A DNA stretch of 64,000 nucleotides from Patescibacteria group bacterium (GTDB lineage: Bacteria; Patescibacteriota; Microgenomatia; UBA12405). Position 1 is the first letter of the stretch. Every line of letters begins with the position of its first letter. The notes beneath the pieces were generated by a model, which worked only from the letters and a program-made list of their open reading frames with translations, was not told the DNA's origin and made no database searches. Below are positions 776 through 60,717 of this stretch, in pieces. The translations under genes and the position numbers were made by a program. The stretch covers positions 120,385 through 184,384 of the forward strand of contig JAMCSD010000006.1 of NCBI GenBank assembly GCA_023380755.1, written 5' to 3'.

Positions 776-1544
776 GTTTTTCTTTGCTGGGCATTTCTAA
801 CGTCCGCATTAATTTGTCTTTTTGGCTGCCGGTATATTCACCCACAATTTCTCCGCTAAACATTCTGATCGCCCTTTTGGCATATTTTAAATATTCTAGA
901 TCATGGGTCACCATAATGATTGTCTTTTTTTGGGTAGTATTTAGTTCCACCAAAAATTCCATTAACTCCACCCCATTTTTAAAGTCCAAATTTCCGGTTG
1001 GTTCATCGGCAATTAATAATTCCGGGTCGGTAATTAATGCCCGGGCGAGTGCCACTCTCTGTTGTTGGCCGCTTGATAATTCGGTGGGTATATAAAATGC
1101 CCAGTTTTCCATCCCTACTTCTTTTAGCTTAGTCTGGGCTTTCATTAATCCTTCCTCTCTTGTCTTTCCGGTTAACAATAAGGGGAATGCCACGTTTTCC
1201 CGGACATTTAGGGCTTTTATCCAGTTAGATTGTTGGTACACCACACCCATATATTTCTGCCGCCAGCTGGAGCGGTCGTCTTCAGTCGTGTTTTGATACA
1301 GGTTGTGTTGCCCTAAATAAGCCTCTCCGGCTGTCGGCTTTTCCAGCCCGAGCATGGTATGCAGCAAAGTTGATTTGCCGCAACCCGATGGCCCCACAAT
1401 AATGGCGAAGTCACCCCGGTTAATCGATAAGTTAACGTCTTTTAATACTGGGACTACCTGGGACCCCACCACAAAGGATTTCGCGACTTTTGATAGGCTG
1501 ATCAGTGATTCCATATTATTTCGAGAGAGGACCAATAAATCCAA
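759..1544 (-). CDS. ABC transporter ATP-binding protein (MacB/LolD/FtsE-type)
   Basis: Walker A GPSGCGKST, ABC signature LSGGQQQRVALARAL and Walker B LLIADEPTGNLD are all present. Confidence 0.85.
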   Translation of the reverse strand: MDLLVLSRNNMESLISLSKVAKSFVVGSQVVPVLKDVNLSINRGDFAIIVGPSGCGKSTLLHTMLGLEKPTAGEAYLGQHNLYQNTTEDDRSSWRQKYMGVVYQQSNWIKALNVRENVAFPLLLTGKTREEGLMKAQTKLKEVGMENWAFYIPTELSSGQQQRVALARALITDPELLIADEPTGNLDFKNGVELMEFLVELNTTQKKTIIMVTHDLEYLKYAKRAIRMFSGEIVGEYTGSQKDKLMRTLEMPSKEKHVKSK

Positions 1545-7138: not shown

Positions 7139-7236
7139 TTTTTTATAATTACTTTCTTAATTTTACTCAACCCCAAAATTACTAGGTGAACAAAAACCGT
7201 AAAACTATTTAATGGTGAAGTAATTGTGGCCATATT

Positions 7237-8298
7237 TTAATTTGGAGTATACCGGGTGGCTTTGTTCCATCCGGTTTTGTAATCAATTGAAAAAACAATT
7301 TTAAAAAAACTTTTTAAAAAAATTAAACAAGCCAAAAACCGCGCTACATAAAATAAAGGAATATATAAAAATATTTTTCCCGTCCGGTGCCGCCAGGCAG
7401 TCAACGCCATTGTCGGCAATAAAAATAAAAACAAATCAATTGCGGCGGGGATTATTAATAAATATGGATGTTTGTCCATCGCAAAAGGAATTACTAGCAA
7501 AAAAGCTAACATCAGCACCCCGTTATATAAACCCTCTAATGCTAACATCGCCACCTCCGCATCCAGCGCCTGGCCGCCCCAGGGAACGTTGTTTTTAATG
7601 ATGCACTGCCAAAAGCCGGTATACCAGCGGTCAATTTGTTTACAAAAATCTTTTAAGGTCTTCGGGTCTTGGGTCACTACTGTCGCCTTGCCTGTAAAAA
7701 CAATCCTCCCCAAGCACTTCCGGTGAATTTGGAAGGTCATATCCATATCCTCGGTTAGGGTACCGGTGGGAATTGGCAGTGTCTTAAAGATTTCTGACCG
7801 GTAAATCGTGGCGCACCCCGGGCAGACAATAATGGCATTTTCGACCGACTGGGCCGCTTTGTGGATGGTTTGGGCAATTTCATATTCCCACAAGCGGAAA
7901 GTAGTCACCCAGCTATGGCTTTTCCCAATCACTTTCCCCACGGCGCAGGCCACTTTTTTATTAGTATCTTTTTCAAAGATAGCCATTAAATTATTGACAA
8001 AATCTTTGGTGATTTTCGTATCGGCATCCATTGGCAATAGGTATTCATAGCGCTCTGTCAGCTTAAATTGTTCGATAGCAGCGTTCATGGCTTTCGCTTT
8101 TCCCCGATTCGGATGTAGGGGAAGTACATGTTGGGTAAAATTAGCCGCAATCGTTTCAGTCTTATCGGTTGACCCATCCGAAACCACGTAAACATCATCC
8201 GCCGCGAAAACTTCCAGCAGTGATTTTAGTGTCTCGGCAATCACTCCCTCCTCGTTGTGTGCCGGCACTAGAGCAGCTAATTTCTTTTTGGTTGTCAT
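7237..8298 (-). CDS. Processive family-2 glycosyltransferase (PgaC/IcaA or chitin/cellulose-synthase-like) with C-terminal TM segments
   Basis: GT2 N-terminus AALVPAHNEEGVI...VYVVSDGSTDKT, DxD-type motifs, a QxxRW-like motif (KQIDRWYTGFWQ) and hydrophobic C-terminal helices. Confidence 0.7.
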   Translation of the reverse strand: MTTKKKLAALVPAHNEEGVIAETLKSLLEVFAADDVYVVSDGSTDKTETIAANFTQHVLPLHPNRGKAKAMNAAIEQFKLTERYEYLLPMDADTKITKDFVNNLMAIFEKDTNKKVACAVGKVIGKSHSWVTTFRLWEYEIAQTIHKAAQSVENAIIVCPGCATIYRSEIFKTLPIPTGTLTEDMDMTFQIHRKCLGRIVFTGKATVVTQDPKTLKDFCKQIDRWYTGFWQCIIKNNVPWGGQALDAEVAMLALEGLYNGVLMLAFLLVIPFAMDKHPYLLIIPAAIDLFLFLLPTMALTAWRHRTGKIFLYIPLFYVARFLACLIFLKSFFKIVFSIDYKTGWNKATRYTPN

Positions 8299-9245
8299 AG
8301 GCCATTAAAATTTTGCGACGGAGTTGTTTCCGGAGTAATGGTTGGCGTTAATGTCTCGGTTGGCATTGGGGTGCCGGTCCCGACTGTCGGTGTCAATGGC
8401 GCGGCGACTTGTAACTCCAAGGCTTGGGTGGGCAAGACTACTTGCAATCCTGAATTGGCCACCTCATCCATCATCGTGGTAAATTTATCGATACTCGTCG
8501 CATATTTAGATTGGTCATTTTGGATTTGGTGGAATACTATAATCACCCATTGTTTCTTGTTCCTCGCTGTTGCCAACCACGAAGCCACATCTGCCGGCGT
8601 CGTATTCCATTCGACAGCTTGCACCTTTAGCCCATATGGATCCGTCACCGGCAGGTCATTATAACCATCACCCGATGTCCGCAGCGATAAGTAATCTTCC
8701 TTCGCTGTATTAATAATGTTGGGAGTGTTTACCCCGCAAGGGGAAACAAAATTGTTAGCAATAATACCGTGGTTCTTAAGATCCACCTTTGCCCCTCCGA
8801 GCTCCTCGCTGACATAAGCATCTGTCATATCTGTGGGGTTACAGGAATGGTTTCTGGTGTGAGAGGTGATTTCCCAGCCCTTGTGGGACAGCATTCTGAT
8901 TTGGCTCCAGCTCATATAATCGGGATCTCCCACTAATCCTGTCGGTACTGCCAAAGTGGCTTTCAGGTGTCTAGCCTCCAGAATTGGGTAGGCCACCCCG
9001 AACTGGGAATTCCAAGCATCATCAAATCCAATAGTCACCAACCCTTGGCCGTTCCATTTAATAGGTTGGATATTTTCATCAATTACGTCCGTTGCTGATT
9101 GTATTTGAGCCTGACTTTCTTTGGGATTATTTTCTGTCTGCCATTTTGTCTGCCGGTTTAGACCAATCAGATAATTAGTGCTCAACCACACCAGTACTAC
9201 CGGAATCACCAACCAGCTAATAAAAAAGATACGGTTATTATTCAT
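8295..9245 (-). CDS. Polysaccharide deacetylase (CE4, NodB-homology) with TM anchor and Pro/Thr-rich C-terminal tail
   Basis: NodB motifs GFDDAW and SHTRNH are present, with an N-terminal TM segment. The 4-nt overlap with the GT2 gene indicates translational coupling. Confidence 0.7.
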   Translation of the reverse strand: MNNNRIFFISWLVIPVVLVWLSTNYLIGLNRQTKWQTENNPKESQAQIQSATDVIDENIQPIKWNGQGLVTIGFDDAWNSQFGVAYPILEARHLKATLAVPTGLVGDPDYMSWSQIRMLSHKGWEITSHTRNHSCNPTDMTDAYVSEELGGAKVDLKNHGIIANNFVSPCGVNTPNIINTAKEDYLSLRTSGDGYNDLPVTDPYGLKVQAVEWNTTPADVASWLATARNKKQWVIIVFHQIQNDQSKYATSIDKFTTMMDEVANSGLQVVLPTQALELQVAAPLTPTVGTGTPMPTETLTPTITPETTPSQNFNGL

Positions 9246-9248
9246 AAT

Positions 9249-10721
9249 TTAATAGCTCCGTTTGTAAACTAAGTAACCATCCCGGTTGTAAATTGGAGTG
9301 TAATTTCCGGCCAGATTTTCCAAAACAACATTGTGCATCGTACTGTGGATTTGTTCCAGAGTTTCATCGCCGCCGTCCAGTTCGATCCAATCAAAATATC
9401 CGTCGTTTATGGCCGCTAAATAAGCCTTTTGGCCGGTCAGGTTACGGTATTGAAACCAATCAAACGTTACCGTATAGGTTGGGAAATTATTATCGTAAGT
9501 CGCCAGGATGGCCGAAGCTCCCACTTCCGATAACACCTTATCTCCCGGTCGGACATGGGTTGATAAAAAACTCAGCACCGAATTACTGTTCCGCCATAAA
9601 TTATTAAACCGGTAGATTTCCTCGTAGGAGACAAAAGTAAAAATCAACAAAATCGCTATCAAGTTAACCGCCAATAACCGGGACGCCAGTACTGCCCCTC
9701 TGAGGTCTAAAAGATGGGCCAAACCGCCTCCGATTAACGGTGACAAAAACAATACTGTTAAGTAGGTATGCTTGTCCAAAGTCGGTTCCCGTTGGGTCAC
9801 AAAATGGAAAATAATCACCACCAGCGATAAGAAGGAGTAAATAAACCATTTTTTCCAATTAATTTTTGTTAATAGTGGCACACTCGCTATCAACCATAAG
9901 GCCCAAACATAACGGGTATTTATCCAAAATACTTCCCAAATAACTTCCCAGCTATTTTTCCCTCTCACTGCCTGCGAAGCTTCGTACAGCAATAGGTTAT
10001 GTAAATTAATCCCAATGTAATAAAGCATTACCAGTACCAGTGGCACCGCAAAATAACGGACCCAAAACTTAAATTGCTGCTTCAGTTTTCGTGCCTGCCA
10101 AAAAGTATAAATAAATAAAAAGGGGATATATAAACCGATCACTATTTTAGTCAGCAACGCCATTGCCAAGAAAATAAATCCCAAAAAATACCACAAACCG
10201 TAATTAGTTTCCTTTTCCTCGGCCTTGTGAATAAAAAGCAAAGATAATACTAAGAAATAAAAACTTGGCATATCATAAGTCGCCAACCGGCTGACATACA
10301 ATCCAACTGTCGCCACCCCGGCCACCGTGGCTCCGATTAAGCCGGCGATATTGGCTTGACCTTCATCCCGGTAAGCCACCAATTCCTTTGTTAATGCAAA
10401 TATCACCTCAATTGTCAGTACCCCAAAAACGACATTGAGTAGCCGGCTGCCCACAATTCCTCCTGTCAAATAAGCAATCGCCGACATTGGCGGATAAATA
10501 TATGGCTGTCCCGCCATCCACGCCGCCGCATTATATGTCCACCAGTCGCCTTGAAATAAACCCAGTCTTCCGATCACGGTGTAAATGGCTTCGTCATTAA
10601 ATGGAGAATTGTAATTCAGATTTACCACCCGCAAGACCAAGGCGGCGGTTATTATTTCGACCAAAATAATTTGGGCCCAATTTTTTTCTATGAAGACTAC
10701 TGCTTTTTGAATCAACATCAA
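9249..10721 (-). CDS. GT-C fold membrane glycosyltransferase (ArnT/PMT-like, GT39/GT83-type)
   Basis: About 12 predicted TM helices, an acidic motif in the first loop (NDEAIYT) and a C-terminal soluble region. This is the typical architecture of lipid-linked-sugar-dependent glycosyltransferases. Confidence 0.5.
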   Translation of the reverse strand: MMLIQKAVVFIEKNWAQIILVEIITAALVLRVVNLNYNSPFNDEAIYTVIGRLGLFQGDWWTYNAAAWMAGQPYIYPPMSAIAYLTGGIVGSRLLNVVFGVLTIEVIFALTKELVAYRDEGQANIAGLIGATVAGVATVGLYVSRLATYDMPSFYFLVLSLLFIHKAEEKETNYGLWYFLGFIFLAMALLTKIVIGLYIPFLFIYTFWQARKLKQQFKFWVRYFAVPLVLVMLYYIGINLHNLLLYEASQAVRGKNSWEVIWEVFWINTRYVWALWLIASVPLLTKINWKKWFIYSFLSLVVIIFHFVTQREPTLDKHTYLTVLFLSPLIGGGLAHLLDLRGAVLASRLLAVNLIAILLIFTFVSYEEIYRFNNLWRNSNSVLSFLSTHVRPGDKVLSEVGASAILATYDNNFPTYTVTFDWFQYRNLTGQKAYLAAINDGYFDWIELDGGDETLEQIHSTMHNVVLENLAGNYTPIYNRDGYLVYKRSY

Positions 10722-11405: not shown

Positions 11406-12275
11406 ATGAACATATTATTACGCTTATTAGCCATCCTTTTCGCTATTTTGCCAATCCGTCAATCCCGCCCGGCTGCGGCCTCATCATCTTATAACCTGCT
11501 AATTGCCGATCGCGGTCATAATCGTTTGATTGAAGTCGCTCCTGATAAGCGGATTATTTGGGAATACGACTTTCATCTGCCCCGTCCTGGTTTGGGGCCG
11601 GATGACGCCTTTTTTGCTAATCAAGGTCAAACAGTGATTGCCAATTTAGAGGAATATCACCAAATTGTTTTAATTGATTACACCTCTAAAAAAATTCTTT
11701 GGTCCTATGGCCACCCCGGCCTCGCCGGATCGGCTCCCGGTTTCTTAAATACCCCCGATGACGCTTACCTGTTGCCTAATGGCCACATTATTGTGGCCGA
11801 TATTAAAAACAACCGGGTAATAGAAATTGATCAACAATCCCACCTGGTCCATGCCGATACTCATCTTCTCAGCCCCAATGGTGACACGCCACTGGCTAAT
11901 GGCCATCTTCTCATCAGCGAAATTCACCGCCGGGACCTAGTGGAATTAAATGCCCAGTGGCAGGAAGTTTTTCGCTTATCATTACCGGTCAACTACCCTT
12001 CCGACCCCCAACTCACCCTTTCGGGAAATTACCTGGTCTCTGACTATAGCAATCCCGGCAAAATTGTGGAAGTTGATCGGCAGGGGAGTCTTATTTGGGA
12101 ATACACCTCAGGCCTTAACCATCCTTCCATCGCCTTGGAGTTGCCCGATGGCCATATCGTCGCCACTGACGACCTCAACAATCGGGTCATTATCATTGAT
12201 AAAAAAACCAACAAAATAATATGGCAGTACACCGGTGTTAATCTTCCCGACGGCGTCGATTACCGTTTTTCTTAG
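11406..12275 (+). CDS. Secreted beta-propeller repeat protein (NHL/YncE-like)
   Basis: Signal peptide followed by about six repeats containing the recurring motif NNR[LV]IE[IV]D / DxxNNRVI. Confidence 0.5.
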   Translation: MNILLRLLAILFAILPIRQSRPAAASSSYNLLIADRGHNRLIEVAPDKRIIWEYDFHLPRPGLGPDDAFFANQGQTVIANLEEYHQIVLIDYTSKKILWSYGHPGLAGSAPGFLNTPDDAYLLPNGHIIVADIKNNRVIEIDQQSHLVHADTHLLSPNGDTPLANGHLLISEIHRRDLVELNAQWQEVFRLSLPVNYPSDPQLTLSGNYLVSDYSNPGKIVEVDRQGSLIWEYTSGLNHPSIALELPDGHIVATDDLNNRVIIIDKKTNKIIWQYTGVNLPDGVDYRFS

Positions 12276-15834: not shown

Positions 15835-15891
15835 CTAGGGAGGACGTCTTCGCCAACGTCTTCAGACTCAAGTCCTCCCTAGAAATTTTTT
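15835..15891 (+). terminator. Rho-independent terminator (11-bp GC-rich stem followed by a T-run)
   Basis: ctagggaggac...gtcctccctag followed by aaatttttt. It lies between convergent genes. Confidence 0.6.
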
Positions 15892-16485
15892 AAATTCAAT
15901 AATTGCCACTGTCCGAAATCCCGCTTGAGCATAAACCTGACGCATCTTTTGGGATACCTCTGAATTATCGATGGCAATCGTATGGGATTCCCCACAACCT
16001 GATTGTTTCACTATAATCACCGCTGGTGCTTGCAGTTCGGCCGTGCTCAACTCATTAAAATCGTCAACCTTCACCTCTTCTGACTTTTCATTTTCGGGGC
16101 CTTCACCAATTATAGTTTGGCCATTTTTATTCATCGTAATTCTTTTAATTTGGATTCCCTTGGTTTCATACATTTCCCTCATCGCCTTTCCATAACTTCC
16201 GTGTTGGAGCATCAGACTTCCCTGGTGCAAAAAAGCCCCATATTCTCTTGTAATACCTTCCCAATAATCCTGATGGGCTGGCAGTGGTAATCCAAAATAA
16301 GCCATAATTGCCGCCATGGCCACAAAGGGGCAGCCTTCTCCGGTCCTTTCCTGGTCTAGATAAAGTTCCCTTAAATTTGCTTGGTTCCAGTCTAATATAG
16401 TACTCAGCGGTCTTATTTCTAGTGTCGGCAAGGCTATTACTCGGCTTGGATTCCTTTCGGATGTTAATACTTCTTGCCAAGACAT
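15868..16485 (-). CDS. Standalone C39-like (papain-fold) peptidase-domain protein
   Basis: EGCPFVAMAAIMAYFG matches the C39 active-site Cys region (CG.A...M..YYG pattern), and a His occurs later in GCGESHTIAI. Confidence 0.4.
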   Translation of the reverse strand: MSWQEVLTSERNPSRVIALPTLEIRPLSTILDWNQANLRELYLDQERTGEGCPFVAMAAIMAYFGLPLPAHQDYWEGITREYGAFLHQGSLMLQHGSYGKAMREMYETKGIQIKRITMNKNGQTIIGEGPENEKSEEVKVDDFNELSTAELQAPAVIIVKQSGCGESHTIAIDNSEVSQKMRQVYAQAGFRTVAIIEFKKFLGRT

Positions 16486-16678
16486 GGATCACCCCAATAA
16501 TAACAATTTATTAAGGCAAAGACAGATATGTCAAAAATTTGCTTTACAATAGAACATGGTCTATAGCGCTTCTGGAATTTAAATCACCCTCCCCTTTTTT
16601 CCCGCAATATTTACCTAGTAATAAAATTATAGAGATAAATCGTATGGTATATTTACGTTAGAGGGGATTTTTTCCAAA

Positions 16679-18337
16679 ATGCTTATTTCCGATCAACAAC
16701 TTAGCCAAATTATTGTTAACCAAGGTCTTGTTGATAATAAAAAGCTAGAAGATATTATCGCCTTTGCCCGGAACGCCGATCTGCCGCTCTCTGAAGCCTT
16801 GTTAGAGAAAGACATCCTTTCCGATCTGGAACTAGGTCAGCTTTTGGCTGCTCATCTTAAGCTTCCCTTTATTAATCTTTCTGAACTCTCCATCCCTCAT
16901 GAACTTTGCCGAATTATCCCCGAAAACATTGCTAAATCTCAAAAAGTTATCTTATTTGACCGTAGTCCTACTGAAATTAAATTGGCTCTAGCCGACCCTG
17001 CCAATACCGACATCCAACAATCTGTTGCCCAAAAGACTGGTACCAAAGTTACCCCTTATTTAGCCACCCACCGGGATATTGAAAATGCCCTAAAGGTTTA
17101 CCGTCAGGATGTCCAGCAGACCTTTAATTCCATGTTGCGCAATCCTGAATTTGTTCCGGTCGCCGAAATTGCTGACCTCCTTATTGAATATGCCTACCAG
17201 GACAAAGCCTCCGATATCCATATTGAACCCGATGAAAAATACTGTCTCATTCGCTTTCGTCTTGATGGTGTCCTCCACGATATTCTCCGACTTCCTAAGC
17301 CTCTTCACGACCGGATTGTCACCCGCATCAAAGTTTTAGCTCGGTTGCGCACCGATGAGCACCTGACTCCCCAAGATGGCCGCCTCCGTCTCCAGCTCAC
17401 TTCAGAAAATTTGGATATCCGGGTTTCCATTGTCCCTGTAGCCGAAGGTGAAAAAGTCGTTTTAAGATTATTGTCTGCCCGTTCCCGTCAATTTTCTTTG
17501 ATGGATTTAGGGATGCGGTCAACAGACCTCAAAAAAGTCATGAATGCTATCAGTAAATCTTATGGCCTAGTCTTAGCCACCGGCCCTACCGGTTCCGGCA
17601 AAACCACTTCCATTTATTCTCTCCTTAAAATACTCAATACCCGCGATAAAAACATCACCACTATTGAAGATCCGGTTGAATATCGACTCTCCGGTGTTAA
17701 CCAAATCCAGGTCAACCCCCGCTCCAATCTCAGTTTTGCCAATGGCTTACGTTCCATACTCCGTCAGGATCCTAACATAATATTTGTAGGAGAGATACGC
17801 GATAATGACACTGCCGCCATTGGGGTTAACGCCGCTCTGACCGGTCACCTGGTCCTTTCCACTCTCCACACCAATGATGCCGCCACCGCCTTACCGCGAT
17901 TTATTGATATGAAAGTTGAGCCTTTTTTGGTGGCCTCGACGGTCAACGTCGTCATTGCCCAGCGTTTAGTCCGCAAAGTTTGTAAACACTGTCGGCGACC
18001 CCAAGAAATTTCCCTAACCGATCTTCGCCAATTGCTCCCTCCAGATGTCCTTGCCCACAACTTTGGCCGCCGTCCCAAAATCACTGCTTTTACCGGTGAC
18101 GGTTGTGATTTATGCCACCATACTGGTTATTCCGGCCGCATCGGTATCTTTGAAGTCATGGAAGTCACCGCCGCCATCCGCAATTTAATTACCGACAAAA
18201 AGGACTCCACCCTGATTTCCGACTGCGCCCAAAAAGAGGGGATGACCACCATGCTCGATGACGGTTTGCAAAAAGTCCTGACCGGGGACACCACTCTCGA
18301 CGAAATCCTCCGCGTTACAAAAACAGAAACCATATGA
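16679..18337 (+). CDS. pilB: Type IV pilus assembly ATPase PilB (GspE family)
   Basis: N-terminal GspII_E_N-like domain, Walker A GPTGSGKTT, Asp and His boxes, and a tetracysteine motif CKHC...CDLC. Confidence 0.85.
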   Translation: MLISDQQLSQIIVNQGLVDNKKLEDIIAFARNADLPLSEALLEKDILSDLELGQLLAAHLKLPFINLSELSIPHELCRIIPENIAKSQKVILFDRSPTEIKLALADPANTDIQQSVAQKTGTKVTPYLATHRDIENALKVYRQDVQQTFNSMLRNPEFVPVAEIADLLIEYAYQDKASDIHIEPDEKYCLIRFRLDGVLHDILRLPKPLHDRIVTRIKVLARLRTDEHLTPQDGRLRLQLTSENLDIRVSIVPVAEGEKVVLRLLSARSRQFSLMDLGMRSTDLKKVMNAISKSYGLVLATGPTGSGKTTSIYSLLKILNTRDKNITTIEDPVEYRLSGVNQIQVNPRSNLSFANGLRSILRQDPNIIFVGEIRDNDTAAIGVNAALTGHLVLSTLHTNDAATALPRFIDMKVEPFLVASTVNVVIAQRLVRKVCKHCRRPQEISLTDLRQLLPPDVLAHNFGRRPKITAFTGDGCDLCHHTGYSGRIGIFEVMEVTAAIRNLITDKKDSTLISDCAQKEGMTTMLDDGLQKVLTGDTTLDEILRVTKTETI

Positions 18338-19386
18338 AAAAGAATAATCACCGAATCTCCAACAGTGAGAAACTGGCCCTCTACAGTAATTTAGCCACCA
18401 TGCTTCAGGCCGGCATTCCCATTCTGGAGGCTGTCCGTCTTTTAGCCGAGGAGTCCCATGGCAGCCTTAAAAAAATGTTGGAAGCCATCGCCGCTGACCT
18501 GGTCCAGGGAGAGGATTTAAGCACCTCTTTTTCCCGTTTTCCTGCGGCCTTCGATCGGATTACCATTAACATTCTTAAGGCTTCCGAACGTTCCGGCACC
18601 CTGGAGACTACCCTCAAAGATTTACGCAACAATTTACGCCGTGATATCGAATTTACTGACAAAGTTAAATCTTCGTTGCTTTACCCAGCCATCCTCTTGG
18701 TTGTTTTTAGTTTGGTATTTATTGTAATTCTTACTTTCGTTATCCCCCGGATTGCCATGGTCTTTAAGAACCTCAAAGTCGTTTTGCCGCTGCCTACTAA
18801 AATTTTAATTTTTGTTTCTCAAATCTTTACTACCTATACCTTGCCGATCGTTGCTCTGCTTATTGTTTTGGTTTTAGCCTTTGTCTATTTTTATGAAACC
18901 AGACGTAAATCGTTTTTTAAGGTCTTTTCCCATTTGCCGGTTGTTTCTCTTCTGGTCCGCGAGATTGACCTGACCCGTTTTTCCCGGAGTCTCGCCCTCC
19001 TTTTGGGCTCTAATGTCCCCATTGCTTCGGCCTTGGAATTAAGTCAGGATGTGGTGGTCGGCCGCGATTTAAATCAGGCCATTCTCCGCTCCCGGGACAT
19101 TATTCTTTCCGGCGGCCGGCTTTCCGAGGGCTTGCGGACCCCCCGCAAAACCATCCCGGCCGTCATTACCAAAATCATTGAATCCGGCGAAAAAAGCGGC
19201 TCCCTCGATAAATCTATGCAGGATGTTTCCGAGTATCTTGATTACAACGTCACCAATGATCTAAAGATGGTCACTACCCTGCTCGAGCCGCTTATCTTAG
19301 TTGTCGTCGGCCTTTTTGTCGGTGGTATGATGCTCTCCATCATTGCCCCCATTTACAATTTAATCGGACAAATCAGTGCCCATTAA
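18334..19386 (+). CDS. pilC: Type IV pilus platform protein PilC (GspF family)
   Basis: Two GspF-like repeats with three TM segments. The 4-nt overlap with pilB indicates translational coupling. Confidence 0.75.
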   Translation: MKKNNHRISNSEKLALYSNLATMLQAGIPILEAVRLLAEESHGSLKKMLEAIAADLVQGEDLSTSFSRFPAAFDRITINILKASERSGTLETTLKDLRNNLRRDIEFTDKVKSSLLYPAILLVVFSLVFIVILTFVIPRIAMVFKNLKVVLPLPTKILIFVSQIFTTYTLPIVALLIVLVLAFVYFYETRRKSFFKVFSHLPVVSLLVREIDLTRFSRSLALLLGSNVPIASALELSQDVVVGRDLNQAILRSRDIILSGGRLSEGLRTPRKTIPAVITKIIESGEKSGSLDKSMQDVSEYLDYNVTNDLKMVTTLLEPLILVVVGLFVGGMMLSIIAPIYNLIGQISAH

Positions 19387-19852
19387 TCGGGGGTTTGCCC
19401 CGCCGCGTCGGGGTTTTACCCTCATCGAAGTTATTATCACCATGGGGATCTTTGTGGTCCTGTTGTCTTTGGGCACCGTTTCCCTAATTAATGCCCAGCA
19501 CATTGCTTCCTTGGACACCGTCACCAATACCCTGATTACCGATCTTAAACAGCAGCAACTGAAAGCCATGGTCGGGGATACCGAAGGGCGTTTTTCCCGC
19601 AGTTCTTATGGCATTCATTTCGATACTGGTGATTATGTCCTGTTTCACGGCACTTATAATTCCAGTGACCCGACCAATTTTACCGTTCCCCTCGTGGGTT
19701 CCTTATCTTTTGCTTCCGCCGGTGAGGTCAGCTTTTCCCAGGGCAGCGGCCAGGTCACCGGCTTGTCCGTTATCACCTTGTCCGATTCTACCAACGGCCG
19801 GCAAAAAGTTATTAATTTAAATTCCTATGGCGTCGTTACCTCCCTCCACTAA
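19376..19852 (+). CDS. Prepilin-type minor pilin or pseudopilin
   Basis: Class III signal RRGFTLIEV (Gly-1, Phe+1, Glu+5) followed by a hydrophobic helix. Confidence 0.7.
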   Translation: MPINRGFAPPRRGFTLIEVIITMGIFVVLLSLGTVSLINAQHIASLDTVTNTLITDLKQQQLKAMVGDTEGRFSRSSYGIHFDTGDYVLFHGTYNSSDPTNFTVPLVGSLSFASAGEVSFSQGSGQVTGLSVITLSDSTNGRQKVINLNSYGVVTSLH

Positions 19853-21809
19853 CCGCGGCCAATCGATCGTCGATCTCGTTATCGCCATGGGTTTGTGTGC
19901 CGTTTTATTGCCGGCCCTGATTACCGGCCTGGTCGCTTCCCGTAACGGCAAAGCCCAGCAGCAGCAGCGCGACGAAGCCACCACTCTTCTTAAGGAAGCC
20001 GAGGAAGCCGTCCGCAGTATCAAAGAAAAAAGCTGGGACGATCTCGTCCCCATCGGCTCGACCTTGCACTTAGCCCGTGCCGGCACCGGCTGGAGCTTAG
20101 CGGCTTCGCCGGAAACTATTAACGGTTTTACCCGTTCGATTACCATTCATAATGTTTATCGGGACTCTAATTTCAATATCATTGGCACCGGCACCAGCGA
20201 CCAAATTGATCCCTCCACCAAAGAAGTCGCCATTACTGTTTCCTGGTCTCAGCCCATTCCCGCCACCTCTCATACTGATTTCTACCTTACCCGTTACTTA
20301 GGCAATAAATATTATGAAGATACATCTGTCGCCGATTTTAACGCCGTTGGCACCACTCAGACCAACGTCCAGGTCACAAATATATTAGGCGGCGAAGTTA
20401 TCTTAGGACCTGGTAATCTGAATGCTGATTGGTGTCAACCTAATTTAACCGTAACCACCGTCGATTTACCCAAAAACGGAGTAGCTAATGCTATCTCGGC
20501 TATTCCCGCCAACGGGTCCAATCCGGCCTATGCCTTTGCTGGCACCGGCGATAACGCTAGCGGCGTTTCCTTTGCGAAAGTTAATATTACTGATACTAAT
20601 CCTCCTCAAGCTTCCATTCCCAATCCGGGCACTTTTGATGGTTTTAAAACCAATGCTGTCTTTGGAGAAGCTAATTACGCCTACCTTGGGACTGATAACA
20701 ATTCCAAAGAAATTGAAATAATCAATTTACAGACAAATCCCTATTCTGAAGCCGGCTATTTTAACGCTCCCGGTAATGGCAATGGTAACGCTATTTATGT
20801 TGCTAATAATATCGGTTATATGGCCAGTGGAAATAAATTTTATACCTTCGATCTCAGTTCCCGGATAGGTAATCGGGGTAATCCGCTAAACAATGGTCAT
20901 GTCACTACTTTGGCCGGCACCGCCACTAAGATCAGAGTCATTAACTACCGAGCATATATTTCGGAAAATAGTACCTCACGACAAATGGAAATTATTGATG
21001 TTTCCAATCCTGCCAATCCTTCCGTTATCGGTCAAGCAGTCAGCTTAAACGATCAAGGAGCTACCGATATTTTTATCAACGATACCGAAACTCGCGCCTA
21101 TCTGGTAACTTCAGCCTCTTCCACCAAAAATGATCTTTTTGTCCTCGACATTTCCACCCATACCGGAAACCGGCCTGTTCTTACCAGTTACAACACCAAC
21201 GGTATGAGCCCAAAAGGTGTCATCGAAGTCATGAATGACCAACGATTAATTGCCGTTGGCATTGGCGGTACGGAGTATCAAGTTTATTCTTATAACGATT
21301 CCACCCACACCATTAGTCTATGTGGCCCCGGAGTTAATGTTGATAGTGGTATTAATGGGGTTGCCGCTGTCACCCAACCTTCAGGTAATGTGTACTCCTA
21401 CATCATTACCGGAGATGCCACAGCTGAATTGAAAATTATTGCTGGTGGTCCCGGCGGGAGTACTCTTTACGCCACCATAGGTTATTTTTATTCTCGACCC
21501 TTCGATTCTACTAACCCCGTAGTCTACAACCGTTTCTTTGCCAATACCGATACGCCTACTGGCACCACCATTACTTTTAAGCTTGCCGCTGCTCCGCCGG
21601 GAAGTAGTGGTTGTAGCAATGCCAATTATCAATTTGTTGGACCCGATCTTAGCATCAATACTACCTATCCCGGCAGTAGTTTTATTCCCTGGAGTAACGG
21701 CCCCAATTTCTACAATCCTGCCCGTTGTTTTAGATACGAAGCCATTCTTTCCGGTGATGGCACCCACACCCCCACCCTTTACGATTTTACGGTTAACTAC
21801 TCTCCATGA
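19827..21809 (+). CDS. Large modular pilin-like protein (660 aa): pilin-type N-terminus fused to an LVIVD-repeat beta-propeller
   Basis: N-terminus NRGQSIVDLVIAMGLCAVLL is a prepilin-like leader with Asp at +5. The C-terminal 400 aa contains repeats of the form AYLGTD...EIEIINL, AYISEN...MEIIDVSNPANP and AYLVTS...LFVLDIS, which resemble LVIVD beta-propeller blades. Confidence 0.55.
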   Translation: MASLPPSTNRGQSIVDLVIAMGLCAVLLPALITGLVASRNGKAQQQQRDEATTLLKEAEEAVRSIKEKSWDDLVPIGSTLHLARAGTGWSLAASPETINGFTRSITIHNVYRDSNFNIIGTGTSDQIDPSTKEVAITVSWSQPIPATSHTDFYLTRYLGNKYYEDTSVADFNAVGTTQTNVQVTNILGGEVILGPGNLNADWCQPNLTVTTVDLPKNGVANAISAIPANGSNPAYAFAGTGDNASGVSFAKVNITDTNPPQASIPNPGTFDGFKTNAVFGEANYAYLGTDNNSKEIEIINLQTNPYSEAGYFNAPGNGNGNAIYVANNIGYMASGNKFYTFDLSSRIGNRGNPLNNGHVTTLAGTATKIRVINYRAYISENSTSRQMEIIDVSNPANPSVIGQAVSLNDQGATDIFINDTETRAYLVTSASSTKNDLFVLDISTHTGNRPVLTSYNTNGMSPKGVIEVMNDQRLIAVGIGGTEYQVYSYNDSTHTISLCGPGVNVDSGINGVAAVTQPSGNVYSYIITGDATAELKIIAGGPGGSTLYATIGYFYSRPFDSTNPVVYNRFFANTDTPTGTTITFKLAAAPPGSSGCSNANYQFVGPDLSINTTYPGSSFIPWSNGPNFYNPARCFRYEAILSGDGTHTPTLYDFTVNYSP

Positions 21810-22309
21810 AAAAATTAACCCTCGGCTTTACTCTTACCGAAATGATGGTCTATATCGGCCTCTTTTCCATCTTTTTGCTGGTCTTAACTGAAATTTTTGT
21901 TTCCATTCTTGACGTCCAAAAGGAATCCGAAGCCCTATCCAGTGTTGAGCAGGACAGCCGTTTTATTGTTGCCCGGTTAATTTACGACATCCAGCGCGCC
22001 CATAGCATTGATTTACCTTCCACTTTGGGTAGCCAAGGTTCCACCCTCTCCTTAACCATCAACTCAACCACTAATACTTATGCCCTCAATGGAGACAATA
22101 TCGCCGTCACCATCGGCGGTACGGCCACTCAATTTAATAGTTTTGATACTACCGTTTCCAATCTGCTCTTTCAGCATCTTGGCAATCCCGGCGGCAAGCT
22201 TGATTCTGTTGAAGTGTCATTTACCGTTACCAGCCGCACCGTCCGCCCTTCCGGTCCGGAAATTAAAAATGTCGATACTGTCATTAATTTACGACCTAAC
22301 TCTTCATGA
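21806..22309 (+). CDS. Prepilin-type minor pilin or pseudopilin
   Basis: MKKLTLGFTLTEMMVYIGLFSIFLL is a class III signal with Glu+5. Confidence 0.7.
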   Translation: MKKLTLGFTLTEMMVYIGLFSIFLLVLTEIFVSILDVQKESEALSSVEQDSRFIVARLIYDIQRAHSIDLPSTLGSQGSTLSLTINSTTNTYALNGDNIAVTIGGTATQFNSFDTTVSNLLFQHLGNPGGKLDSVEVSFTVTSRTVRPSGPEIKNVDTVINLRPNSS

Positions 22310-22680
22310 AAAAATTAACCACCGGCTCTGCCACCGTCACCCTCATCATTTTTATTGCCATTGCCTCCATTATTACCACTGCCGCCATCACCACCATTGC
22401 CGTCAACTCCTTGGCCGCCTCCCGCTTCGAAGAGGGGAATGTCGCTTCCTTTGTGGCCGAATCGGGCATTGAAGAAGGTTTAATCCGCTTTTTGCGCGAC
22501 CCCCTAAATTACACCGGTGAAACCCTGACGACTTCCGATGGCCAAGCCCAAATCACCGTTTCCGCCGATAAAACCACCCTGACCTCCACCGGCACTGCCG
22601 GTAATTACGTCCGGACCATTCAAGTCCAGCTTAATTATTCCGATAATTTAACTCTCTCCTCATGGCACGAAATCTATTAA
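22306..22680 (+). CDS. PilX-like minor pilin
   Basis: A hydrophobic N-terminal helix followed by SRFEEGNVASFVAESGIEEGL, a PilX_N-like pattern. It shares its first five codons with the preceding gene. Confidence 0.45.
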   Translation: MKKLTTGSATVTLIIFIAIASIITTAAITTIAVNSLAASRFEEGNVASFVAESGIEEGLIRFLRDPLNYTGETLTTSDGQAQITVSADKTTLTSTGTAGNYVRTIQVQLNYSDNLTLSSWHEIY

Positions 22681-23717
22681 AGTTCTCCCCTAAAATAGCC
22701 GTTCTCGTGGTTCAAAAAAACGGTCTTGGCTATTACGATGACTCTCGCGAATTAAATTTTAAGTTTCCTGCGGGGGCTGTGGTTGACCAAGAAATTGTTG
22801 ACCCTCTCCAATTTACTGCCACGCTTCAACAATTTATTCACGACCATCATCTTGAGCCCCACACCCTCTTATTGGTTCTAGATAAATCCTATTGTTTTTC
22901 CAAAATCTTTACCGCCGCCCCCGCCGCCGAAGCGGTTAACGAATTCTTGGCTAACATTCCTTTTTCATCCCTATCCTCGCTTCTTGCCCCGGTCGACAAC
23001 CGCACCTATCTTTTGGCCGTCAATAAAGATCTTTATGAAACCATCAAAAACGTTTTTCATCAGTCGAAATTTAAAATCACCCTGGTTCTCCCGAGTCTGG
23101 CCCTCGAGACTGCCAATTTAACCATCAAAAAACAGCTGACCCCTCATGCTCTTAAAGAAATTTCCCAAAAACAAAAAATCCTTAAAACCTTTAATTTTCT
23201 GGGAAGCCGCTCCCCATCCTATTCCTTTAGTGCCGCCTTTAAGCGTCTCCAAAACCATTCTTCCCGCAACTTATTTATTTTGCTTCCCGTCTTTTTATTT
23301 TTAGTCATTATTTTAGGTGGCCTTTTATGGCTTCGCTCTCATCCGTCGGTTCGTTTAGTCCGCTCCGGCATTACTAATATTCACCCGATCCCGACTAAGG
23401 CAGTTACTCCCACTATCCGCCCTTATTCTTTAGAAAGTACCACCATCAAAATTATTACCGCCGCCAACCGGCCTTCTAAAAATGCCGACAAGCTCAAAGA
23501 TAATCTCGCCTCCCTGGGCTTTAAAAATGTTGTCCTTAGCTCTACTACTGCTCCCAATACTTCCGCCAAAACCATTCTTTCATTTTCTCTTCGCTATCCT
23601 GCTGATCTTAAAGATAAGATTACATCAAGTACCAATAAGTTATTTATAGATACAATTATTCAAGACGATAATAACCTGGCTGCAGATGTCGTAATCACGG
23701 TGGGACAGAGTAATTAA
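22662..23717 (+). CDS. Pilus-assembly-associated bitopic membrane protein: PilM-like N-terminal region, one TM segment, LytR_C-like C-terminal domain
   Basis: A single TM segment (LFILLPVFLFLVIILGGLLWL) occurs mid-protein. The C-terminus IKIITAANRPSKNADKLKDNLASLGFKNVVLSSTTAP...ADVVITVGQ resembles a LytR_C domain. Confidence 0.35.
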   Translation: MARNLLKFSPKIAVLVVQKNGLGYYDDSRELNFKFPAGAVVDQEIVDPLQFTATLQQFIHDHHLEPHTLLLVLDKSYCFSKIFTAAPAAEAVNEFLANIPFSSLSSLLAPVDNRTYLLAVNKDLYETIKNVFHQSKFKITLVLPSLALETANLTIKKQLTPHALKEISQKQKILKTFNFLGSRSPSYSFSAAFKRLQNHSSRNLFILLPVFLFLVIILGGLLWLRSHPSVRLVRSGITNIHPIPTKAVTPTIRPYSLESTTIKIITAANRPSKNADKLKDNLASLGFKNVVLSSTTAPNTSAKTILSFSLRYPADLKDKITSSTNKLFIDTIIQDDNNLAADVVITVGQSN

Positions 23718-23802
23718 AAGAATAAGCGGTAATTTAAATTGACAGAATAATTTATTGTATGTTATCGTGGACTTGGATTGTTAAATATTAATAAAAAAAA
23801 TT

Positions 23803-24258
23803 ATGAGCTTATCCAAGCTTCAGTCAAAATCCTCCCAGGGTTTCACCCTCATCGAATTAGTCGTTGTCATTGGTATTTTGGCCGTCCTTTTAACCATCGT
23901 CTTAGTCGCGGTTAACCCCAGCAAACAATTCCAAGCTGCTGATGACACTAAACGACGTAGTGATGTCAACGCTATTCTAAATGCTATTTCACAATATTCT
24001 GCCGATCATCACGGATTATTACCATCCGGTATTGGTGACTCTGCTGCTGAAATCGGCACCCTTACTAACCTTTGTTCTGATTTGATTACTTCTCCTGGCA
24101 ACTATATTCCCGCTCTACCAGTTGACCCCACTCTTTCCACCGGACCTATTACCACTTGCACCGGCTCTTTCACGACCGATTATAGTGCCATGCATGATTC
24201 AAGTGGACGTGTAACTGTGGCTTCAATCTTAAACTCAGATATTTCTGTAATGCGCTAA
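23803..24258 (+). CDS. pilA: Type IV major pilin (PilA-like)
   Basis: Canonical signal SQGFTLIELVVVIGILAVLL, a small 151-aa protein with a C-terminal Cys pair, and a strong terminator downstream. Confidence 0.8.
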   Translation: MSLSKLQSKSSQGFTLIELVVVIGILAVLLTIVLVAVNPSKQFQAADDTKRRSDVNAILNAISQYSADHHGLLPSGIGDSAAEIGTLTNLCSDLITSPGNYIPALPVDPTLSTGPITTCTGSFTTDYSAMHDSSGRVTVASILNSDISVMR

Positions 24259-24278: not shown

Positions 24279-24308
24279 TCCCCCGCCGCGGCGGGGGTGT
24301 TTTTTTTG
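24279..24308 (+). terminator. Rho-independent terminator
   Basis: atcccccgccgcggcgggggtg followed by tttttttt. Confidence 0.75.
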
Positions 24309-25771: not shown

Positions 25772-26878
25772 TCACTTATACAAATAGAAAAAATCTTTAT
25801 TATAGCCATTTAAATATTGTCCTTTGCCATCATACAGCCGGGTCGACAGCGGCTCGCTTAAGTAATTATTACCACCCTGAGAATTAAAAATATTAAATTT
25901 TACCCAATAAGGATTAATGTCTAACTGGATGGCATTCACCGCCCCGGCCATTTTCAGTGCTTCCGCCAAACTGTCGGCATTCAAATTATTTCCCACCGCA
26001 AACAGCAGGTTGCCATCTTTGGTCAATCCTAATCCCGACCGCCAGGTAAAAATACTGGCCGTAATTGTCCGCCCCCACAGTTTCTTATTTTTTGGGTCGA
26101 GTACCGCTAATTGTCCATTCAACACCAGAATTGGGCAATTCTGCCGCACAAACGCTACCCCCGGCCCCAACTCTTGACCTTCATAATCGATAATCTTCAA
26201 GTCCCCGTTGTCATAGGCTACCAGCGTTCCTAAATCTTTTTTCAATGGTAAATAAGTAGTTTCGCCCACTATCATGCCGTAGGCTCCATCCCGGTACTGA
26301 AAGCCGCCGTCAAACGCCGCTATCAATCGCCCGTTATTCACAATTTCTGCTGGTACCACTCCGGGTCCCGGTTTCCCCACCGGCCCGCCTGGTTCCTTTT
26401 TGCCGGCTACCAATCCCAGTCTTAAGGCTTTGATATCAATTTGCGCCACGTTGACCAGGGCATAAGGCCGTTCCGGATCTGGCCGCACAAAAGTACTGGC
26501 CATTACTGTTTCTTCTGGGAAGAGCTTTAGCGGTCGGTTTTTCCATACTCCCTCTCCTGACAGGGGAGTCAATGCCGGGTTCACCGCCACCGGATTTAAG
26601 TTTAATCGATTCTTATATATGGTGGCTGTTCCTAAGCTATTATCTTGGGCAGCATTAGTCGCCACGGCATTTTTACTGTAAGCTAACTGTTGGGCCTTAT
26701 CCGAGGCATTGTAATAATATTTTTCCAAAGTGATGACATTATTCGCTCCCAGCAAAGGGCGGAGATAGGCATCGGTAAATTCGGCTGCCGCCGGAGTATC
26801 CAATTTTATAAAAGCCACCGCCCCCACTCCCAATACTGCCAGGACCGCGACTACCATAATGCTAAGGCGCTTGAGCAT
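25772..26878 (-). CDS. Secreted protein, phosphodiester-glycosidase-like (DUF2233-type)
   Basis: Signal peptide. AAFDGGFQY and AIQLDIN segments resemble the NAGPA/DUF2233 family. The match is weaker than for the paralog at 48784-49692. Confidence 0.35.
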   Translation of the reverse strand: MLKRLSIMVVAVLAVLGVGAVAFIKLDTPAAAEFTDAYLRPLLGANNVITLEKYYYNASDKAQQLAYSKNAVATNAAQDNSLGTATIYKNRLNLNPVAVNPALTPLSGEGVWKNRPLKLFPEETVMASTFVRPDPERPYALVNVAQIDIKALRLGLVAGKKEPGGPVGKPGPGVVPAEIVNNGRLIAAFDGGFQYRDGAYGMIVGETTYLPLKKDLGTLVAYDNGDLKIIDYEGQELGPGVAFVRQNCPILVLNGQLAVLDPKNKKLWGRTITASIFTWRSGLGLTKDGNLLFAVGNNLNADSLAEALKMAGAVNAIQLDINPYWVKFNIFNSQGGNNYLSEPLSTRLYDGKGQYLNGYNKDFFYLYK

Positions 26879-28116: not shown

Positions 28117-29940
28117 ATGAGTATTTACCTTAAGCATACGCCAATTTTGCTATGTCTTATGGTTTTAGCCAGCGCCATTTTCTTGGCCCGGCCTTCCTTG
28201 GCGGCCGTTAGCTCCTGGCAAAAAAGCGCCAGTTTTACTCCCGCCTACCCCGACGATTTTAGCAGTACCAACTTTCAGCAGTCACTCAAAAATTACCAAA
28301 GTATCGGTGGCAATTATGTTACCTTAATCATCACTTTGCTCCAAGATAACGAAGGCTCGACCACTATTTATACCGGCAACAATACCCCTTCCGACCAGTC
28401 ATTAGCCAATGCTACTAAATACGCCCAATCTCTGGGGCTGAATGTTGCTTATAAAATCCATATTGATCTAGTCAATAACCACTGGCGGGCCAATATTAAC
28501 CCTTCAGACCGGGCTACCTGGTTTTCCAACTACAATAACTGGCTTTCCCATTATGCAACCTTGGCCGCCGCTAACGGTGTCAATGAATTATTTATCGGTG
28601 CTGAGTTATACGATATGACTAGTACCAAAGTTAATTCCGGCAATACGGGCTATTGGAATAATATGATAGCCGGCGTTCGAAAAATTTTTTCCGGCAAACT
28701 TTCCTATAGCGCCCAAAGAGGGGACGGTCCTTATTACAACGAATGGGGTGAAATCGGCTTTTGGAATAATCTTGATTACTTGGGTATTTCTGCGTATTAC
28801 CCCCTCGCCACCAATCTCAGCAATCCTACGGTCAATGATTATATGGATTCCTGGAAATCGATTGATAGCACTTGGTTTGCGCCGATGTATCAACAATACC
28901 AAAAACCGATTTTATTCAGTGAATTGGGTTACCGCTCCGAGACTGGCACCCACTATCACCCTTTTGACGGCAACACCAACGGCGCGCCCAACATGCAGGA
29001 GCAGGCCGATCTTTATCAGGCCATGCTGCAATACTGGAATAATCAAAACTATGTCCAAGGCCTCCATTTATGGGATTGGCAAACCGATCCTAATGCTGGC
29101 GGTCCCAATGATAACCGTTATACTCCCCAAAACAAACCCGCCCAGTCAGTCATCGCCTCCTGGTTTCAGGGTGGCAGCACTCCCAATCCGACCACTACTC
29201 CCGCTCCCACGGCTGCCCCTGCCCCAACTTCTGCTCCCGGCCAATTTACTTTGTCGGCAGCTATTAACCCCGCCAATCCCACACTTAACCAACCCCTGAC
29301 TGTTACTAGCAGCGTCGCTAATTCCGGCACGGTCAATGATGCCATTGTTGATATTGAAATTTATAATAGCCAAAACCAGCAAGTCTTTCAAAAGTACTTT
29401 GAACACCAAAATCTGTCAAGCACGGCCATTAGTTACCCCCTTTCCTGGCAAACCGGTCAAACCGGTGCCTATCGGGTAGCCATCGGCATCTTCAACAATA
29501 ACTGGTCGGTTAATTACCTCTGGAATAACCAGCTGACCACCTTCACCGTCGGTGCTGTAGCTACTCCGCCTTCGCCTACTCCTACCCCCACCACCACTCC
29601 TACATTACCCACTCCCACCTCCGCTCCTCCCGCTCCCGTCTCCGGCAGCCTAAATATCTGGTGGCCGACCAGCGGTGCCACCCTTTCCGGTGTCCAGCCA
29701 TTTAAGGCCATATTGACCAATAACGATATAAATAATTACCACTTGTATTGGCAGGTTGATGGCGGCGGTCTTAATGAAATGAACAATAGTACTCAAGATT
29801 ACCCTCACAAAGAAACCTCAGTTGATGTTAGCTCCTGGAACTGGCGGGGAAATGGCCCTTACACCATTAATTTTATTGCCAAAGACAATAGTGGCAACAT
29901 CCTCCAGCAACTCTCAGTTTCCATCAATGTCAGTCATTAG
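28117..29940 (+). CDS. Secreted modular glycoside hydrolase ((beta/alpha)8, clan GH-A-like) with Pro/Thr linkers and a conserved 95-aa C-terminal domain
   Basis: Signal peptide, candidate catalytic Glu in GAELYD and FSELGY, PTPTPTTTP linkers, and a C-terminal module also found in the GH5 enzyme at 56121-57701. Confidence 0.45.
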   Translation: MSIYLKHTPILLCLMVLASAIFLARPSLAAVSSWQKSASFTPAYPDDFSSTNFQQSLKNYQSIGGNYVTLIITLLQDNEGSTTIYTGNNTPSDQSLANATKYAQSLGLNVAYKIHIDLVNNHWRANINPSDRATWFSNYNNWLSHYATLAAANGVNELFIGAELYDMTSTKVNSGNTGYWNNMIAGVRKIFSGKLSYSAQRGDGPYYNEWGEIGFWNNLDYLGISAYYPLATNLSNPTVNDYMDSWKSIDSTWFAPMYQQYQKPILFSELGYRSETGTHYHPFDGNTNGAPNMQEQADLYQAMLQYWNNQNYVQGLHLWDWQTDPNAGGPNDNRYTPQNKPAQSVIASWFQGGSTPNPTTTPAPTAAPAPTSAPGQFTLSAAINPANPTLNQPLTVTSSVANSGTVNDAIVDIEIYNSQNQQVFQKYFEHQNLSSTAISYPLSWQTGQTGAYRVAIGIFNNNWSVNYLWNNQLTTFTVGAVATPPSPTPTPTTTPTLPTPTSAPPAPVSGSLNIWWPTSGATLSGVQPFKAILTNNDINNYHLYWQVDGGGLNEMNNSTQDYPHKETSVDVSSWNWRGNGPYTINFIAKDNSGNILQQLSVSINVSH

Positions 29941-56120: not shown

Positions 56121-57716
<1,596 letters not shown>

Positions 57717-57749
57717 CTAACACGCCCCGGTTGACCGATGCAAATCCGT

Positions 57750-60715: not shown

Positions 60716-60717
60716 AA

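Follow-up and report, generated by a model that had tools for sequence, protein, structure and literature searches.

A candidate modular minor pilin with an LVIVD-type beta-propeller in a conserved type IV pilus operon of Microgenomates

We consider a type IV pilus locus in a 64,000-nucleotide stretch of DNA from a Patescibacteria group bacterium of the Microgenomatia (contig JAMCSD010000006.1, positions 120,385 to 184,384; this whole stretch is called the window, and positions below are counted from its first letter). Eight open reading frames (ORFs) on the + strand lie between positions 16679 and 24258, in the order pilB, pilC, a minor pilin, a gene for a protein of 660 amino acids (aa), two further minor pilins, a membrane protein and pilA. 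The first seven overlap one another, successively by 4, 11, 26, 4, 4 and 19 nucleotides (nt), and the eighth, pilA, follows after a gap of 85 nt; the genes form one translationally coupled operon. The fourth gene (19827..21809, +), whose start overlaps the upstream gene by 26 nt, is the subject of this study. It is present as a 660-aa ORF just as an earlier interpretation of these letters alone (the sequence-only reading) had described it, and its product is 100% identical to a hypothetical protein at NCBI from a Patescibacteria metagenome-assembled genome (contig of 381,725 bp), with 748 homologs at E<=1e-3. The central proposal of the sequence-only reading, a prepilin-type minor pilin fused to an LVIVD-type beta-propeller, is upheld by the conservation of the signal, the predicted fold and the position in the operon.

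The N-terminus of the protein reads MASLPPSTNRG/QSIVDLVIAMGL, where the slash marks the predicted cleavage site (MASLPPSTNRG/QSIVDLVIAMGLCAVLLPALITGLVA in a longer form, MASLPPSTNRG/QSIVD in summary). The pilin-like leader (residues 1-11; 19827..19859, +), with glycine at -1 and aspartate at +5, had been pointed out before and can be read directly from the sequence; it is short, polar and positively charged, and Gly(-1) is followed by glutamine. To place these residues in the family, we use an alignment of the 120 best homologs, with counts on the 117 that have a complete N-terminus. Gly(-1) is found in 114 and Gln(+1) in 108 of them, a hydrophobic stretch of more than 20 residues follows the cleavage site, and the leaders range from 4 to 34 aa without sequence conservation. 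The G(-1)...D(+5) pattern does not extend to the orthologs: it is not a family trait, because 116 of the 117 homologs have Glu(+5) and the window protein is the sole one with Asp (homolog P0036, for example, has AG/QSLVE at the cleavage site). The +5 codon in the window is GAT, so Glu(+5) is absent there, and the Asp, which keeps the carboxylate, appears to be a conservative one-off in a family that obeys G(-1)...E(+5). Taken over the 117 N-termini, these counts argue for a class III signal (IPR012902, PF07963, TIGR02532) rather than an ordinary Sec signal peptide. The N_methyl motif (PF07963) is matched by 27 of 66 orthologs at E<=0.01, with a best value of 1.8e-5.

The leader is followed by a pilin module (residues 12-170; 19860..20336, +), which starts with Q(+1) and D(+5) and continues through a hydrophobic alpha1 into a beta-sheet. 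In the full-length AlphaFold2 model, built on the 66 orthologs (predicted local distance difference test, pLDDT, 88.7; predicted template modelling score, pTM, 0.65), a continuous helix of about 60 residues (9-68) leads into an antiparallel sheet (strands 79-165), the "lollipop" of pilins, and Pro29 within alpha1 is invariant. Modelling residues 1-198 separately gives the same helix and sheet, with pLDDT above 90 over most of the module. The predicted lollipop is consistent with a pilin, though it is not independently confirmed. The gene order (second of four minor pilins) hints at the GspI/ComGE slot; we do not claim equivalence. Between the pilin module and the head lies a linker (residues 171-199; 20337..20423, +), which takes up short strands (177-193) in the full-length model alone and comes out as disordered, with a pLDDT of about 55, in the separate model of the pilin module.

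The head begins with a seven-bladed, LVIVD-type beta-propeller (residues 200-548; 20424..21470, +), an acidic domain with an isoelectric point (pI) of 4.7. The full-length model folds the repeats as a propeller, with 28 strands arranged as seven groups of four over residues 206-542, and the Foldseek matches are seven-bladed propellers (the DDB1 BPB domain, WDR12 and eIF3i; E ~1e-8 to 1e-10, template modelling score <=0.72 on the target). The blades, each 44-52 aa long, share a common pattern of a hydrophobic run at the end, followed by D/N and a Pro-containing turn (MEIIDVSNPANP, LFVLDISTHTGNRP, IEIINLQTNPY), and a hidden Markov model (HMM) from blade 4 of the family detects four other blades in the window protein. 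The LVIVD-like repeats of the sequence-only reading are therefore real, by both the blade HMM and the AlphaFold2 model, and there are seven of them; their span is about 350 aa (200-548) and not the 400 aa that had been given. The family LVIVD (PF08309/IPR013211) is matched by 61 of the 66 orthologs at E<=0.01 (best 1.2e-16), and a precomputed PF08309 match is found on many of them. The window protein's own score is sub-threshold, and it is because the family matches that we assign it to LVIVD.

Past a junction at residues 541-550, the chain ends in a C-terminal beta-sandwich domain (residues 549-660; 21471..21806, +; AlphaFold2 strands 551-659), predicted with pLDDT of 84-97. This domain was absent from the earlier description, and it has no Pfam match. 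Four cysteines are invariant, C203 and C499 in the propeller and C596 and C634 in the beta-sandwich, and they are predicted to pair as disulfides (C203-C499 and C596-C634); a disulfide-forming system has been reported as enriched in candidate-phyla-radiation (CPR) bacteria (PMC6744442). The acidic character is shared by the family, with a median pI of 4.4 and a net charge of about -14 for the propeller and a median pI of 4.4 for the C-terminal domain, and the head is acidic in 66 of 66 orthologs.

The genes on either side of the 660-aa gene confirm by their Pfam and NCBIfam matches that it lies, as had been proposed, in a pilB-pilC-pseudopilin-pilA cluster. The extension ATPase PilB (16679..18337, +; 552 aa) matches T2SSE (4e-126) and MshEN (7.5e-16) in Pfam and PilB/GspE (~1e-150) in NCBIfam, and the platform protein PilC (18334..19386, +; 350 aa), whose gene overlaps the pilB stop by 4 nt, matches T2SSF (1.3e-48) in two stretches. 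Minor pilin 1 (19376..19852, +; 158 aa; RRG/FTLIE) is GspH/ComGD-like, with an N_methyl match of 3.8e-7 and sub-threshold ComGD and GspH matches. On the downstream side, minor pilin 3 (21806..22309, +; 167 aa; TLG/FTLTE) overlaps the stop of the 660-aa gene by 4 nt and has an N_methyl match of 8.7e-4 and a weak ComGF match. Minor pilin 4 (22306..22680, +; 124 aa; TTG/SATVT) has Thr at +5 and a faint PilX_N match (E=0.46); its positional orthologs in two related loci (L001 and L003) are also without Glu5 (G/QALVV and G/QALMT), and Gly(-1) without Glu5 is, by analogy, the signature of a top-most tip subunit of the GspK/PilX/ComGG type. The best NCBIfam matches of the neighbouring minor pilins are ComGD, ComGF, ComGC and ComGE, all under the cut-offs.

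The seventh gene (22662..23717, +) encodes a bitopic membrane protein of 351 aa, with one hydrophobic segment near residues 203-223 and an unassigned family, and is a possible assembly-platform accessory. It had been described as a PilM-like protein with a LytR_C-like tail. The PilM part finds no support in the sequence, which gives no Pfam match at E<=0.1 and no PilM, GspL or PilN match; of the LytR_C tail there remains just a faint match (E=0.18) at residues 271-349. A word-based homolog search with this protein returns itself alone. Its positional equivalents in related loci are about 25% identical over the N-terminal 150-240 residues, and since they are just 224-247 aa long, the C-terminal tail is an addition in the window genome.

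The operon closes with the major pilin candidate PilA (23803..24258, +; 151 aa; SQG/FTLIE), which has an N_methyl match of 7.3e-8 and GspG/ComGC-like matches. A terminator-like hairpin of the intrinsic type (24280..24307, +), with 7 G-C pairs and a T run, stands 22 nt past pilA, and the 85-nt gap ahead of pilA contains a promoter-like site (23739-23768, +; TTGACA, 18 nt, TATCGT, and a TG upstream). With this site before and the hairpin after pilA, the major pilin may be transcribed alone, which is what the sequence suggests. Two antisense ORFs inside the 660-aa gene (21381-21767, -, 128 aa; 19817-20146, -, 109 aa) are of low complexity and probably due to chance.

How far does this arrangement extend beyond the window? 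A profile of the pilin module, searched against 1.84 billion representative proteins, gives 250 clusters at E<=1e-30, most of them of 600-700 aa and some of about 950-1030 aa. Among the species-representative genomes of GTDB (one per species), 144 stretches encode a relative of the 660-aa protein, and the loci of 80 of these stretches are analysed here. The informative record titles of the 144 name Microgenomates lineages only (Gottesman-, Ames-, Levy- and Roizmanbacteria). Many of the relative-bearing records (L014-L016, L019, L021, L030, L033-L035, L077 and others; third-party annotation assemblies) bear the title "uncultured Gammaproteobacteria bacterium", and in one case the title is "Candidatus Limnocylindrales". 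The synteny and the 43-50% identity of the proteins suggest that such labels are wrong and that the operon has not been transferred.

The order of the operon is nearly invariant among the 80 loci, and the gene keeps its position in about 70 Microgenomates genomes. Upstream of it we find PilB in 68 of 71 loci, PilC in 70 of 71 and the first minor pilin in 68 of 71; downstream, the third minor pilin is found in 63 of 64 loci, the minor pilin without E5 in all 64 and PilA in 56 of 64. The mean identity to the window proteins over the 80 loci is 45.6% for the modular pilin, compared with 57% for PilB, 49% for PilC and 44% for PilA; the remaining minor pilins stand at 38-43%. Within the modular pilin the best-conserved parts are the propeller and alpha1, and the propeller is the most conserved domain. 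Its invariant loops include T240-G246, K274-N276 and the loop NAPGNGNGN at residues 313-321. Long variants of about 1020 aa (L003 8001-11048, P0005-P0014, P0018 and P0020) have the order pilin, propeller, propeller and C-terminal domain. The L003 operon also contains an additional 306-aa ORF and three pilA paralogs, and the gene directly after it (15876-19048) encodes a product longer than 1262 aa that contains RCC1 repeats, Peptidase_M23 and Big_13; RCC1 is the repeat type of PilX2, the propeller pilin of Saccharibacteria.

Combining the information of the signal, the predicted fold, the operon and the family, we consider the protein to be, probably, a minor pilin of modular build in a type IV pilus of the monoderm (Com/T4a-like) type; it would be processed by PilD, take its place in the tip complex and bind through its propeller. 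The standard priming/tip complex (GspHIJK, FimU-PilVWX, ComGD-GG) is made up of four minor pilins, of which one is without Glu5, and the operon encodes exactly four minor pilins, one without E5. We infer cleavage, incorporation at the tip and binding as follows. The precursor would be inserted in the membrane through its hydrophobic alpha1 helix, and a prepilin peptidase encoded elsewhere would cut after Gly11. The mature protein (Gln1...Asp5) would then form, with the operon's other three minor pilins, a tip complex that primes assembly on PilC/PilB. Because the protein would enter the filament first, the propeller and the C-terminal sandwich (about 490 residues) would be placed at the distal tip, where the head could act as a ligand-binding module, the job of PilY1/PilC in Proteobacteria and of the RCC1-propeller PilX2 in Saccharibacteria. 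The high conservation of the head argues for a conserved ligand or partner, and a propeller so acidic and so well conserved suggests either a conserved ligand other than DNA (on the partner cell, a glycan or a constituent of the wall) or a conserved partner protein.

Known systems provide several comparisons for this assignment. The window protein fits the definition of a modular pilin (Raynaud et al. 2021), with a pilin module and a domain that is not specific to pilus biology. It resembles the structurally characterised minor pilins PilB (vWA) and PilC (lectin) of Streptococcus sanguinis, CofB of enterotoxigenic Escherichia coli and ComZ of Thermus in joining a small pilin module through a short linker to a bulky functional module that the filament displays (PMC8179133). 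The folds grafted in those proteins, however, are vWA, lectin, beta-repeat and beta-solenoid, and none is a propeller with a sandwich. PilY1/PilC of Pseudomonas, Neisseria and Myxococcus also put a propeller at the tip of type IVa pili together with four minor pilins and have adhesion and priming roles, an analogy already drawn in the sequence-only reading; for the window protein the same placement is an expectation. PilY1 is a non-pilin riding on the minor-pilin complex, with a propeller of IPR008707, whereas the window propeller is covalently fused to a minor pilin, and no PilY1/Neisseria_PilC family (IPR008707) is found among the Pfam matches of the window protein or the 66 orthologs. Judged by sequence, the protein is an analogue of PilY1 and not a member of its family.

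A further parallel is PilX2 of Nanosynbacter lyticus TM7x, a minor pilin of Saccharibacteria with a seven-bladed propeller and a proposed tip adhesin, the deletion of which halves host binding while filaments are still made (PMC11623550). Like PilX2, the window protein is the largest minor pilin of its Patescibacteria locus and has a seven-bladed propeller; in PilX2 the propeller is C-terminal. The two differ in that the PilX2 propeller is made of RCC1 repeats and its PilD signal is not predicted, whereas the window family has LVIVD repeats and the canonical G(-1)/E(+5). In addition, the window family possesses the extra C-terminal sandwich, and its conservation far exceeds that of the pilins described in PMC11623550. 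We detect no sequence relation to PilX2, with no RCC1 match in the window protein or the 66 orthologs.

Several points weigh against the tip-pilin assignment. In the window protein itself both defining signatures are missing or weak: it has no N_methyl match at E<=0.1 in Pfam or NCBIfam, it carries Asp instead of Glu at +5, and its LVIVD score of 13.3 bits, from one stretch at residues 366-402 (E=0.052), falls short of the Pfam cut-off of 20.2. A Foldseek search of the isolated pilin module against the Protein Data Bank (PDB) gives no significant match (best E=0.06); the matches do include a Thermus competence pilin and the model of a pseudopilus, with a probability of just 0.25-0.7. Profile searches of PDB sequences with the full-length and the pilin-module alignments find no solved relative, just sub-threshold matches to the N-terminal helix of pilins. 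A head of about 50 kDa must cross the cell wall. The strong conservation across lineages with presumably different partners is unusual for a host-specific adhesin. Finally, the processing and retraction genes are missing nearby. As the sequence-only reading had noted, pilT and pilD are not found in the window: tblastn with PilB finds no pilT or second T2SSE ATPase, and no pilD (Peptidase_A24) is found by Pfam scans that covered 57 out of 79 ORFs of at least 110 aa (the other 22 are mostly nested or overlapping frames). Nor is pilT or pilD found within 7 kb of 73-80 related operons, the pilD part of this search being a weak one by motif regular expression. Because no prepilin peptidase is found in the window or beside the related operons, processing of the precursor would depend on a gene elsewhere. 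PilT and PilD are reported to be widespread in CPR bacteria (PMC6744442), and for that reason they are probably encoded elsewhere in the genome.

The conservation profile leads to the rival explanation that survives best, in which the protein is a component of the machine, anchored at its base or just priming or stabilising assembly (in the way of PilY1, which primes and opposes retraction, or of alignment proteins), with the propeller binding a conserved self component (minor pilins, cell wall or S-layer). That the propeller is the most conserved domain of a protein conserved about as well as PilC is easier to reconcile with a constant partner than with diverse hosts. The operon is also without recognisable PilN/O/P-type alignment proteins, its sole accessory gene is very divergent, and PilY1 primes assembly in Myxococcus (as cited in PMC11623550). 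The conserved G(-1) and E(+5), however, are the mark of subunits that undergo cleavage and packing into the filament, and in TM7x the loss of PilX2 does not prevent filaments from being made (PMC11623550). Priming and display at the tip are, moreover, compatible, as the priming complex becomes the tip in known systems, and this rival overlaps with the placement of the protein in the tip complex. As an explanation of its own we regard it as improbable.

The Com-like character of the operon (pilB only, with ComGD/GF-like minor pilins below the cut-offs) raises a second concern, whether the protein is the DNA receptor of a competence-type pilus, its head capturing DNA as does ComZ in Thermus. ComZ is itself a pilin of the modular type that binds DNA (PMC8179133), CPR bacteria have been proposed to scavenge DNA and to possess DNA-uptake pili (PMC6744442), and no pilT is found beside the operon. 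The family-wide acidity of both the propeller and the C-terminal domain speaks against a role in binding DNA, and we mark this role down because the head is acidic in every one of the 66 orthologs. Pfam scans of the window protein and the orthologs detect no DNA-binding family, and deletion of the T4P-2 pilins of TM7x left competence unchanged (PMC11623550). A DNA receptor is therefore very unlikely. The weakest rival, an ordinary Sec-exported or membrane-anchored LVIVD surface protein that resembles a prepilin by chance, could draw on the missing N_methyl match, the Asp at +5 and the frequency of LVIVD repeats in cell-surface proteins (PMC10210494), yet on the conserved signal and the synteny it appears close to excluded, given that in 117 homologs G(-1) and E(+5) are almost invariant and keep a fixed spacing to a 60-residue helix, that N_methyl is matched by 27 of 66 orthologs, and that the gene has a fixed slot among minor pilins, with overlapping frames, in about 70 genomes.

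We return to the tip pilin and to its precedents. In the catalogue of Raynaud et al. 2021 (PMC8179133, Dataset S1) there are seven architectures combining IPR012902 and IPR013211, in 30 proteins with 1 to 13 LVIVD signatures, and an 860-aa Falkowbacteria protein with a dozen copies of a "motif of unknown function" is singled out (PMC8179133). IPR013211 is the LVIVD repeat (PMC10210494), so the combination of pilin and LVIVD is already on record. The catalogued proteins are like the window protein in having a pilin module followed by LVIVD repeats and in belonging to the same superphylum; the catalogue counts domain architectures and gives neither a structure nor the operon context nor an analysis of conservation. 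An InterPro survey of this kind would overlook the window protein because both of its signatures are sub-threshold. In our literature search we find no paper that discusses the pilin-LVIVD family of Microgenomates specifically. The protein is thus a well-supported member of a catalogued architecture, for which both the modular-pilin principle and the domain combination are already established, and the finding leaves the general knowledge of pilus biology unchanged. What is new here is the predicted structure with its C-terminal sandwich, the fixed slot in the Microgenomates operon, the conservation profile, the double-propeller variants and the correction at +5.

The Patescibacteria account for a large part of the diversity of bacteria, are nearly all uncultivated and are thought to live attached to other cells, and type IV pili are the leading candidates for finding and holding their partners. 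To our knowledge, experimental data on Patescibacteria pili come from Saccharibacteria only, where a different propeller pilin aids host binding. In the Microgenomates, a large group of ultrasmall bacteria with no cultured member, each copy of the pilus operon carries a well-conserved propeller pilin, and residues 200-660 provide an expressible target for ligand screens, antibodies and labelling in cryo-electron tomography. We can go one step further and ask whether the LVIVD-propeller pilin is a universal, vertically inherited tip device of Microgenomates pili, with one conserved ligand throughout the superphylum. We put this forward tentatively, as a possibility that has less than an even chance by some distance. 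If it is true, the unusual conservation of the protein would reflect recognition of this one ligand, which would be either a common cell-wall glycan of the partners or an essential self component that primes a secretin-less, PilNOP-poor machine, the head would be a single handle with which to find the partners of an uncultivated superphylum or to block attachment, and the tandem double-propeller variants would be a natural expansion of avidity or specificity.

Other features of the window are described here for completeness. A second, small beta-propeller protein of 289 aa (11406-12275, +; PQQ_2 1.3e-8 and an NHL repeat) is encoded 4 kb upstream of the pilus operon, and a 1498-aa product (1516-6012, -), probably a large protein of the cell surface, contains fn3, Big_13 and purple-acid-phosphatase N-terminal-type domains. 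For a small-genome organism the window is rich in glycan-active enzymes, which are found at 6056-10721 (-), 28117-29940 (+) and 56121-61893 (-). The set includes GH18, GH113, a GH5 cellulase, GH8, two GT2 (one of them cellulose-synthase-like), two PMT_2 glycosyltransferases and a polysaccharide deacetylase. Two NAGPA phosphodiester glycosidases are located at 25772-26878 and 48844-49692. In 31 of the 32 bins of 2 kb the + strand has more C than G, a negative GC skew that reaches -0.28 regardless of the coding strand, and the cumulative skew drops almost monotonically to about -4 over the window; an unusual disparity in strand composition has reportedly been described for a Microgenomates genome.

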